Assembly: GCA_034722055.1 (NCBI GenBank)
Contig: JAYENL010000239.1
Span: forward strand, 1 to 24,771
Length of the DNA stretch: 24,771 bases
From: Armatimonadota bacterium
GTDB lineage: Bacteria; Armatimonadota; Zipacnadia; Zipacnadales; UBA5352
Direction of reading: 5' to 3'
In this document: positions 18,095 through 21,204 of the stretch, piece by piece
Layout of the letters: every line of letters begins with the position of its first letter
Position numbering within the stretch: the first letter of the stretch is position 1
Position numbers and translations under genes: made by a program
The notes under the pieces: generated by a model
Told to the model about the DNA's origin: nothing
What the model saw: only the letters and a program-made list of their open reading frames with translations
The model's database searches: none

Positions 18095-18122
18095 CGCGCC
18101 GGGGGAGGCCCCCCATGTCTGA

Positions 18123-18337
18123 GCTAGCCTTTACCCGCAAGTTCCGCGAGGGTTGTGTGCCTTGGGAGGGGCTGCCTGAGGGCGCTCCGCAGGAGCGCAC
18201 GAAGTCAGCCCGCAGGCTCCGGGCGCAACAACGGCCGGGCGGGCTTCGGCTCCAGCATACAGCTTGGAGCCTCAGACGGCCCCTCCGAACCACAAACGGC
18301 GCGACTCGCCGGTCGCCACGAAGTGGGTAAAGGTAAC
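18123..18337. mobile_element. MITE-like structured insertion with 8-9 bp target-site duplication at the yqgF start codon
   Basis: CATGTCTGA at 18114-18122 and 18337-18345; subterminal inverted repeats CCTTTACCCGC (18128-18138)/GTGGGTAAAGG (18323-18333); nested internal stems; no transposase. Confidence 0.65.
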
Positions 18338-18763
18338 ATGTCTGACAGCGACCCGCAGGTCGTCGTGGCTGTGGATCCCGGGCGCGCCAAGTGTGGAATC
18401 GCCGCGGTGGCCGCCGACGGAGGCGTCCTGGGGCGCCGCATCGTCCCCGCCGACCAGGTCGGACGCGCCGCATGGCAGCTCGCCACCACACACGGCGCAT
18501 CCACCATCGTGCTCGGGGGGCGCACCGGCGCCGGCGAGGCCTGGGAGCGGCTGACGCAGGCCACCTCCCTCCCCATCGCGGAGGTCGAGGAGCACATGAC
18601 CACCCTCCAGGCCCGGCGCCGCTACTGGCGTGAGAATCCGCCACGCGGCCTCTGGCGGCTCGTGCCCACCAGCCTGCGCGTCCCTCCTGAGCCCTACGAC
18701 GACTGGGCGGCCGTCATTCTGGCTGAGAGATACCTGGGGCTGGCGGACACCGAGGCGAGGTAG
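18338..18763 (+). CDS. yqgF: YqgF/RuvX-like RNase H-fold nuclease
   Basis: VAVDPGRAKCGIA, VEEHMTTLQARRRYW, PYDDWAAVILAERYL; this subfamily is typically found next to DUF3084. Confidence 0.82.
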   Translation: MSDSDPQVVVAVDPGRAKCGIAAVAADGGVLGRRIVPADQVGRAAWQLATTHGASTIVLGGRTGAGEAWERLTQATSLPIAEVEEHMTTLQARRRYWRENPPRGLWRLVPTSLRVPPEPYDDWAAVILAERYLGLADTEAR

Positions 18764-18841: not shown

Positions 18842-19786
18842 ATGAACGATCCCAAGTCCCTGCTTCTGCCCGAAGAGGGTCCCATCGTCCCGGACTCCTG
18901 GCATGATGTCGCCAGCGCCATCGAGGGTGAACGTGGCACGATCATGGTTGTGGGTGGCACGGATACCGGCAAGACCGTCCTCGCCTGGTGGCTGGCCGAG
19001 CGGCTGGCGGAGCGCGACAGCGCGGCCGTCGTGGACGCTGACCTGGGCCAATCGATGCTCGGTCCGCCGGGAACGGTGGGGTGGCGGGAGATCGGGGGAG
19101 GCCGCGAGGAGTTCGTGTTCGTCGGCGTGGTCTCACCGGCGGGGCGGCCGCTGGGAGCGGCCATGGCCACCTGGAGGGCCGCCCAGCGCGCGGGAGAGGC
19201 GGCAGCGTGGGTCGTCCTGGACACCTCCGGCTACGTGGATGGCTCCGGCGCCATCGCTCTCAAGCGCGGCAAGATGGACCTCGTGTCCCCCACCGACGTC
19301 ATACTCATCGAGGATGAGCCCGGGCGGCTGGAGGCCATCGCCCGAGCGGTGCGGCCCGGCGAGACGCGCCTGCATCGCCTCCAGCCCACGCCGGCGGACG
19401 CCAAGAGCCCCTCCTTCCGCCAGCGCTGGCGCCAGGAGCGGTTCGGGGAGTACATGCAGGGCGCGGAGGTGCGGGAGATCTCCCTGCGCGAGCGCGCGGT
19501 CTACGGCGGCCGCCCGTGGGTCTGGGGCGGCTCCTGGGCGCAGATCGCCGAGCGCCTCCGGGGCCTGCTGATCGGGCTCAGCGACGCCCGGGGCATGGGG
19601 CTGGCCATCGGCCTGCTGCGCGAGGTGGAGGATGAGGGCGAGACGCTGCACGTGCTTACGCCGCTGGGCAAACGAGAATCCCCCGGGGAGGACACAGAAT
19701 CTCCGCGAGGGCTCGATGACGTGGCCGCGGTCGGGCTGGGCACGGTCCGACTGCGGGAGGATGGAACGCAGATTCGCGAGGAGTGA
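18842..19786 (+). CDS. clp1: Clp1/Nol9/Grc3-family polynucleotide 5'-hydroxyl kinase
   Basis: Walker A GGTDTGKT, DADLGQSMLGPPG, clasp-like DTSGY, RxxxR lid (RQRWRQER). Confidence 0.85.
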   Translation: MNDPKSLLLPEEGPIVPDSWHDVASAIEGERGTIMVVGGTDTGKTVLAWWLAERLAERDSAAVVDADLGQSMLGPPGTVGWREIGGGREEFVFVGVVSPAGRPLGAAMATWRAAQRAGEAAAWVVLDTSGYVDGSGAIALKRGKMDLVSPTDVILIEDEPGRLEAIARAVRPGETRLHRLQPTPADAKSPSFRQRWRQERFGEYMQGAEVREISLRERAVYGGRPWVWGGSWAQIAERLRGLLIGLSDARGMGLAIGLLREVEDEGETLHVLTPLGKRESPGEDTESPRGLDDVAAVGLGTVRLREDGTQIREE

Positions 19787-20148: not shown

Positions 20149-21204
20149 ATGGCCAGCAAGACCGTCAACGAGCTCGAGGTCGGCGACCGCGTGGTCGGCA
20201 CCTACGCCGCTCGCAACAAGTCCCTGGCGAGCTTCCGCAGCAAGCCCGGCCAGTACCTGTCGCTGACGCTCGCGGACGCCACGGGGGAGATCCCCGCGCG
20301 CATGTGGGACAACGCCGAGGAGGCCGCGGCGCTGTTCGGCGCCGGGGACGCGGTGACCGTCCGCGGGGTGGTGGAGGAGTACCGGGGGCAGAAGCAGCTT
20401 GTCATCGAGCGGCTGAAGAGGGCCGAGGTGGAGGAGGTGGACCGGGCCGTCCTGGTGCCCTCCAGCTCGCGGGACATCGAGCATTTGCGCCAGCGACTGC
20501 TGGAGACCGCCGAGGGCGTGCGGGAGCCGCACCTGCGGGCACTGGTGGACAGCTTCTTCGGCGACGAGGAGTTCCTGGAGTGCTTCTGCCGCGCCCCGGG
20601 CGCCAAGAGCCTGCACCACTCCTACATCGGCGGGCTGCTGGAGCACACCGTGGGCGTGATCGAGGTGCTGGAGGCTGTGGTGCGGGTGCACCCGGAGCTG
20701 GACCGCGACGTCCTCATGGCCGGGGCCCTGCTGCATGACATCGGGAAGGTCGCCGAGCTTGAGTGCTCCACGTCAATCGAGTACACTGACCAGGGGCGGC
20801 TGGTGGGACACACCGTGCTCACCGACCGGATGGTGAACCGGGCCATCGACGAGATCGATGGCTTCCCGGAGGAGCTGGCCAACCGCCTCACGCACCTGCT
20901 GCTGTCGCATCATGGCCAGCGGGAGTACGGCGCCCCGGTACTGCCCATGACCGCGGAGGCCTGCGCCCTGCATTACGCTGACAACCTGGACGCGCACGTG
21001 CAGTACTTCAACCAGGTGGTCAGCGACGGCCGCAGCGCCGGCACGCAGTGGTCGGACTACCAGCGCCTCTTCGAGCGGTACATCTACGTGGGCTCGGACT
21101 CCGCGACCCCCGGCTCGCAGCTTCCGCCTCAGGCGCCGAAGGCGCCGCCGCCTCAGGAGCGGGCCGAGGACTCCCAGCCGCCCGGCAACCTCTTCGACGA
21201 GTGA
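20149..21204 (+). CDS. yhaM: OB-fold plus HD-domain 3'-5' exoribonuclease, YhaM family
   Basis: N-terminal OB fold (LTLADATGEIPARMW), HHSYIGGLLEHT, LLHDIGK, GRLVGH, SHHG, ADNLDA; GAGGAG SD. Confidence 0.92.
   Translation: MASKTVNELEVGDRVVGTYAARNKSLASFRSKPGQYLSLTLADATGEIPARMWDNAEEAAALFGAGDAVTVRGVVEEYRGQKQLVIERLKRAEVEEVDRAVLVPSSSRDIEHLRQRLLETAEGVREPHLRALVDSFFGDEEFLECFCRAPGAKSLHHSYIGGLLEHTVGVIEVLEAVVRVHPELDRDVLMAGALLHDIGKVAELECSTSIEYTDQGRLVGHTVLTDRMVNRAIDEIDGFPEELANRLTHLLLSHHGQREYGAPVLPMTAEACALHYADNLDAHVQYFNQVVSDGRSAGTQWSDYQRLFERYIYVGSDSATPGSQLPPQAPKAPPPQERAEDSQPPGNLFDE

Follow-up and report, generated by a model that had tools for sequence, protein, structure and literature searches.

A MITE with IS50/Tn5-type ends inserted at the start codon of a YqgF-like gene in an Armatimonadota bacterium

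A 214-bp element with IS50/Tn5-type ends interrupts the translation start of a YqgF/RuvX-like gene in a 24,771-nt stretch of DNA from an Armatimonadota bacterium (assembly GCA_034722055.1, contig JAYENL010000239.1; the whole stretch is called the window here). The element is a genuine insertion: it belongs to a dispersed family, it carries the ends of that family, it is flanked by a 9-bp target duplication, the same-genus genome G001 has the junction without it, and the gene downstream is intact. The probable explanation is a chance insertion of an IS50/Tn5-type MITE at the start codon, which was tolerated because the gene came out of the duplication complete and with a start that it can use. 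Regulation by the leader ORF or the stem that the insertion created is unsupported, and translational coupling may help expression of the gene.

The insertion lies between a DUF3084 gene and the YqgF-like gene (Table 1), and 20 nt separate the DUF3084 stop from the original ATG. The YqgF-like protein scored 21.3 bits against PF03652 (cut-off 29.2), and the gene was called a paralogue because the canonical RuvX sits on another contig of the same genome (C242). A CLP1-type P-loop kinase gene (18842-19786) follows directly, and an OB-fold/HD-domain gene (20149-21204) is next. Between 17900 and 18900 no sigma-70 promoter match was obtained and one terminator-like match was recorded, on the minus strand. 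A literature search of partial scope returned nothing dealing with DUF3084.

Table 1. Features of the DUF3084-YqgF-like junction (window coordinates).
Feature	Position	Strand	Basis
DUF3084 gene, 492 aa	16616..18094	+	PF11283, E 1e-18
Original SD GGAGG (18104-18108) within G5/C5-6 hairpin; C-run doubles as left target arm	18101..18114	+	Hairpin from folding; identical in empty site
Left copy of 9-bp target duplication, contains original ATG	18115..18123	+	Sequence, empty-site comparison
71-codon leader ORF, ends in TAA of right end, no Pfam match, flat GC by codon position	18115..18330	+	ORF list, Pfam
IS50/Tn5-type MITE, 214 bp, non-coding	18124..18337	+	Family ends, both-end search
Left 19-bp end, 6/7 IS50 signature positions	18124..18142	+	Signature comparison
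Stop-free stretch in the frame of the YqgF-like gene, GTG at 18155; likely remnant of ancestral in-frame read-through	18128..18337	+	Frame scan
Inner inverted pair of the genome's GGAGGGGC repeat, REPIN-like cargo; arms 18162-18181 / 18270-18289	18162..18289	+	Inverted-repeat search
Extra base making the copy 214 instead of 213 bp, approximate place	18164	+	27/30 copies without extra base
Right 19-bp end, 4/7 signature positions, terminal base altered, weak SD-like stretch for second ATG	18319..18337	-	Signature comparison
Right copy of target duplication, contains present ATG of YqgF-like gene	18338..18346	+	Sequence, empty-site comparison
YqgF/RuvX-like paralogue, intact, 141 aa	18338..18763	+	PF03652 match weak, below cut-off

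The preliminary description of this locus, made from the sequence alone, had noted the repeat CATGTCTGA at 18114-18122 and again at 18337-18345, and this was confirmed. Its insertion of about 215 bp is real, but the borders were off by one base, as the family ends place them, and the inverted repeats that it took for subterminal (arms at 18128-18136 and 18325-18333) are the terminal repeats of the element. The two copies of the target duplication agree at 8 of 9 bases, with one mismatch; a 10-bp reading (18114-18123 and 18337-18346) with the last G lost is possible. The segment folds better than shuffled versions of itself (z = -4.49; 1 of 200 shuffles equally good), and an Rfam scan of it gave no family at cut-off, the sole chance match lying below. 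The flanks of the empty site in G001 align with 90.5% identity over 411 nt on one side and 87% over 400 nt on the other. This is an empty DUF3084-yqgF junction of the kind that the description had envisaged in relatives, and its statement that deleting the segment restores an intact start holds; the SD of that start, described as ideal, lies inside the G5/C5-6 hairpin there too. The end of DUF3084 was in view at 28 of 30 homologue loci, and element ends occurred at the window junction only. No joint skipping the element was detected in contigs of four sequencing runs from one study. The contigs of three of these runs, possibly the source of the assembly, span both junctions without differences. 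As contigs lose rare variants, the absence of an element-free joint is no proof of fixation. None of the sequencing runs listed as holding this sequence was an RNA run.

The window copy carries 27 substitutions and one extra base that are absent from both closest siblings; these two share 94% identity, and each has 84-85% identity with the window copy. Its 28 private changes make the window copy seem old, unless the assembly has dropped closer siblings. An insertion that reduced or silenced the gene, tolerated because a YqgF-like paralogue is dispensable, would agree with the canonical RuvX encoded elsewhere in the genome and with a junction that seems permissive to repeats: the distance from the DUF3084 stop to the conserved Asp codon is 19-65 nt at 25 of 28 junctions, and two genomes of the family (G010, locus L044; G012, locus L046) have unrelated, independent expansions to 131 and 154 nt. 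We consider such a loss very unlikely, since the reading frame is intact and dN/dS against G001 is about 0.13 although the copy looks old, and since a homologue was present in all 31 genomes searched. The dN/dS value is a sum over both branches from which the time since insertion is not separable; the last 400 codons of the neighbouring DUF3084 gene gave 0.22. The expansion at L044 contains two REP-like cores.

The element is one of many in this genome. BLAST returned 43 family matches, and a profile search found 107 loci; 55 of these have one end or both, and the other 52 consist of the inner part alone. Thirteen short copies of 177-283 bp carry both 15-bp ends, all of them intergenic according to a crude self-trained gene caller (4,575 genes, 87% coding), which predicted the gene at 18338 and did not call the leader. 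Among the 12 other both-end copies the duplication is 9 bp in nine, in line with the 8-9 bp anticipated for further copies, 10 bp in two and unclear in one. The ORF of the window copy has no Pfam match. The window element is thus a MITE: it is short, has no transposase, is bounded by terminal inverted repeats of 15-19 bp and a target duplication, and has dispersed copies. The earlier view of it as a non-autonomous element therefore holds for this multi-copy family. Two long end pairs (1,626 and 1,915 bp) were dropped from the family, their left ends having three mismatches, no duplication being present and their right ends belonging to short copies. Some longer copies have a further small insert inside the left end (C219:15705-15957, C3:32542-32824, C221:27196-27440, C4:21206-21461).

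The 8-base core of the GGAGGGGC repeat, which forms the inner part of the MITE, occurs 1,522 times in the genome, and the repeat borders both sides of four Y1 transposase genes (L036-L039, on C193, C100, C256 and C30). L036 scored above the RAYT cut-off NF047646 and L037 slightly below it. The inner part and the usual target of the MITE are therefore a REP/REPIN sequence, that is, a high-copy palindrome flanking a RAYT gene. In L037 the RAYT part appears to be fused in frame, via the repeat, to an unrelated upstream ORF. The top 16-mers of the genome include at least three further high-copy palindromic repeat families (60-160 copies).

Elements of the IS50 subgroup of the IS4 family are described as 1,350-1,550 bp long, with a DDE/YREK transposase and an 8-9-bp direct repeat (De Palmenaer et al., 2008; PMC2266710), and Table 1 of that paper gives an end signature of seven positions. 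All seven are present in the left end of the closest sibling, whose two ends score 7/7 and 6/7, and the left end of the family agrees with the published outside end of Tn5 (PMC2566895) at 14 of 19 positions. In the window copy both ends lack some of the signature bases, the terminal base among them, and these changes have likely immobilised it. Insertion sequences with matching ends, which had been proposed as a check on the element, were found, all in other genomes. L086 is 1,504 bp long, has identical 15-bp ends and is flanked by a perfect 9-bp duplication; its Tn5-like transposase (PF14706, PF02281, NF033590; Tn5 in the PDB, E 7e-22) is frameshifted and has Q in place of the K of YREK. Within the taxonomic family of the window, a Tn5-like transposase was found in 3 of 17 other genomes. 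Partners with similar ends occur in G009, G016 and G005. L148 and L149, in G009 and G016, are 1,471-bp elements with intact 463-aa IS4 transposases; the ends of the G009 element match the left end of the window copy at 14 of 19 positions. The full Y-R-E-K is present in L148, L149, L151 and L152. Partner lengths of 1,471, 1,471, 1,504 and 1,594 bp include one above the published range. L085 was set aside as a host gene with a chance end match.

In the genome of the window itself, in an assembly that is 93% complete, neither PF14706 nor the L086 protein detected a Tn5-type transposase; four PF01609 matches were recorded alongside this search. The putative mover of the MITE is an IS50-group transposase acting in trans.

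Insertion sites of the family follow a clear preference, which is for the C-rich/G-rich arms of the REP-like repeat and not for start codons. At arm position -4, 22 of the 24 arms from this genome and 55 of the 62 from elsewhere have a C, as do the two arms of the site in the window. Most sibling copies were inserted at the foot of the repeat that flanks the RAYT genes. The C-run 5' of the ATG in the window fits the C-rich arm, so that the site is a look-alike arm and not a REP. A trans-acting IS50-group transposase would have cut here on account of that C-run, the ATG itself being irrelevant. We give practically no credence to a family that targets translation starts and is built to preserve translation downstream. 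The preferred G-rich right arm does resemble an SD, and three further copies lie 20-22 nt from predicted starts, but only 4 of 55 end-bearing loci fall within 25 nt of a predicted start, below the 12% of random intergenic points that do so. Nor are copies enriched at ATGs, a point that had been proposed as a check: the window copy is the only one of the 55 that abuts a predicted start (0 nt), and no ATG was found in the duplications of 13 full copies from five relatives. These 13 were kept from 38 loci examined, of which 24 were without a full copy with duplication and one was a repeat; one of them has a TTG that opens 138 codons and is ambiguous. In other phyla 4 of 31 duplications contain ATG or CAT, none opening more than 65 codons, and the lengths of family copies fall in all three phases. 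A 9-bp duplication would contain a start with a chance of about 0.04 per tolerated insertion, and at least one such case among 13 has a chance of about 0.40. The three copies near starts are decayed (C27:10861-11095, C221:25526-25731, C174:12678-12843), and in the C27 copy the target arm is formed by an SD-like sequence.

The 71-codon ORF from the original ATG, ending 7 nt before the duplicated one at 18338, exists as described; it was missed at that time that, from 18128 on, the element can also be read without a stop in the frame of the gene itself. Frames that stay open across the element are nothing unusual in this family: of the 78 frames in 13 copies, 38 reach the last 15 nt without a stop, and 68 codons stayed open in 31% of shuffles. 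The leader has a GC content of 0.69/0.66/0.69 by codon position, against 0.75/0.57/0.87 in the YqgF-like gene. Both closest siblings are 213 bp long with the first frame (frame 0) open from end to end, and 213 plus the 9 duplicated bases makes 222 nt, a whole number of codons, so that the original SD and ATG would have read on into the gene. Given a 9-bp duplication, the insertion was likely in frame at birth and would have added 74 residues to the protein. The extra base, missing from 27 of 30 copies, likely came later and turned this N-terminal extension into a leader by moving the frame onto the TAA in the right end. The frame of the gene is still open from 18128, as such a history predicts. 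An in-frame origin does not hold for a 10-bp duplication with the last G lost; 10 bp is the length in 2 of 11 clear cases in this genome. An out-of-frame ATG at 18322, in the right end, has also been lost; an adaptive reading of this loss was set aside, as it is one of the 28 private changes.

Today the gene is probably made from the second ATG, by way of a middling SD-like stretch in the right end of the element. That the right end supplies such a stretch had been recognised from the sequence. Against the 16S tail of this genome its binding energy is -6.6 kcal/mol, which falls between the quartiles for 3,947 predicted genes (median -7.8 kcal/mol); 61% of the genes have a stronger SD, and the original SD, at -11.0 kcal/mol, is surpassed in 13%. 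In the folding model, the cost of opening the start region is 20.6 kcal/mol in the empty site, 16.1 at the leader and 8.6 at the new start, the last figure being exceeded in 91% of a sample of 300 genes. The minimum free energy fold pairs the new SD in an end-to-end stem. This stem is real but modest by the folding model: with the left end blocked, opening the new start becomes 1.2-1.9 kcal/mol cheaper. From the low opening cost and the small effect of the stem, the second ATG could likely initiate alone, and from the same 1.2-1.9 kcal/mol leader ribosomes could matter.

Ribosomes that stop 7 nt upstream may aid initiation at the second ATG, and reinitiation or coupling across this distance is plausible. 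In E. coli reporters described in PMC10666635, reinitiation over gaps of 2-14 nt varied and depended on the gene, and at 38 nt it had mostly disappeared. Under the same origin, expression could by now depend on the leader, with ribosomes crossing the element, melting the stem, stopping 7 nt short and reinitiating, a chance rescue and not an evolved one. Such dependence would suit a strong original SD next to a weaker new one, the pairing of the new SD, the E. coli distances and the many family relatives in which the DUF3084 stop lies only a few nt from the YqgF-like start. We hold it to be unlikely, while giving it some weight, because the new start is predicted to open more easily than that of most genes and the leader start less easily, because the stem adds so little, and because, with the leader frame open in both siblings too, no stop needed removal. 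A more elaborate form, in which a bacterial upstream ORF was born in two steps (a MITE inserted in frame, then one added base that freed the protein) and the leader now gates the gene by stem melting, relaying a coupling from DUF3084 across the MITE to the YqgF-like gene, strikes us as decidedly doubtful.

The preliminary description had also raised a domesticated cis-regulator; leader and stem would then form a condition-sensitive switch under selection. The geometry is suggestive, the ends of the copy have decayed, and both frames are still open: in a simulation with 27 random changes the leader frame stayed open in 40% of runs and both frames in 18%, which makes their openness a faint hint of constraint that is not significant. 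We nevertheless judge this reading highly improbable. The element is present at 1 of 28 junctions examined, the leader ORF being absent from the 27 others, and private changes are spread evenly over the leader codon positions (10/7/9), which show no bias. No regulatory codon run or sensor was evident in the peptide and no Rfam family was matched at cut-off. Crossing frames are common in the family, the folding model makes the new start more accessible than the old, and a switch would have a small predicted amplitude.

Chance insertion with a tolerated outcome, the reading that we prefer, has counterparts in several known systems. The family resembles IS50/Tn5 in its 19-bp signature ends and mostly 9-bp duplication (De Palmenaer et al., 2008, PMC2266710; PMC2566895) and in partner elements of 1,471-1,594 bp with Tn5-type domains and YREK (PMC2266710). 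It differs in that the window copy has no transposase, holds a REP-like inverted pair and has decayed ends, and in being a MITE family with strong C-rich/G-rich target arms and also 10-11-bp duplications. REP repeats are the insertion sites of ISRm22, a member of the IS4 family (Tobes and Pareja, 2006; PMC1525189), and likewise most sibling copies lie at the foot of the RAYT-flanking repeat. Unlike this family, ISRm22 is assigned to subgroup IS4Sa (PMC2266710), with a 6-bp repeat reported, and the window copy, unlike ISRm22, lies at a look-alike arm outside any REP. In-frame fusions of host ORFs with MITEs and other small repeats are reported for the RPEs of Rickettsia, the MITEs of Anabaena and REP2 of Neisseria (PMC10969869, PMC3184786), where, as here, insertion in a coding sequence is tolerated through an open frame or a supplied start signal; the present case differs in being a single copy at a start codon whose probable later frameshift gave an upstream ORF. 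The junction also resembles termination-reinitiation coupling (PMC10666635) in having a stop a few nt before the next start and an SD-like stretch inside the upstream ORF, with the difference that this ORF is an accidental product of a MITE and that coupling is putative. A literature search of partial scope gave nothing on IS50-ended MITEs and nothing on a target duplication that rebuilds a start codon.

The locus is a clean natural before/after case of an insertion at a start codon that was survived; it is instructive and follows from known parts. The duplication rebuilt the ATG, the old start likely went on serving through an open GC-rich frame, and a new start probably comes from the transposon end. 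Should the leader prove necessary for expression, the case would matter more, because the origin of an upstream ORF from selfish DNA would be dated and traced.

The wider family, with one 19-bp end in many phyla and strong target arms, may interest those who seek site-selective relatives of Tn5. The exact 19-mer end occurs in 77 stretches of the GTDB collection (L071-L147) from several phyla, many of them elements of 110-370 bp with duplications of 9-11 bp; outside this genome the duplication is 9 bp in 16 of 31 cases and mostly 10-11 bp in the remainder. The MITEs that this end delimits in Chloroflexota, Parabeggiatoa, Poribacteria and Armatimonadota have unrelated interiors and lie mostly between C-rich/G-rich arms, and the Parabeggiatoa copies contain a short AT-rich tandem repeat. 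Two Fibrobacteria elements (L094 and L106) share the end, L094 being 1,046 bp long with a 312-codon frame. L148, L149 and L151 (G016, G009) and L152 (G005) are intact or near-intact IS50-type insertion sequences. They are candidate target-selective Tn5 relatives, and the left flank of L149 is the same REP foot that the MITE uses.
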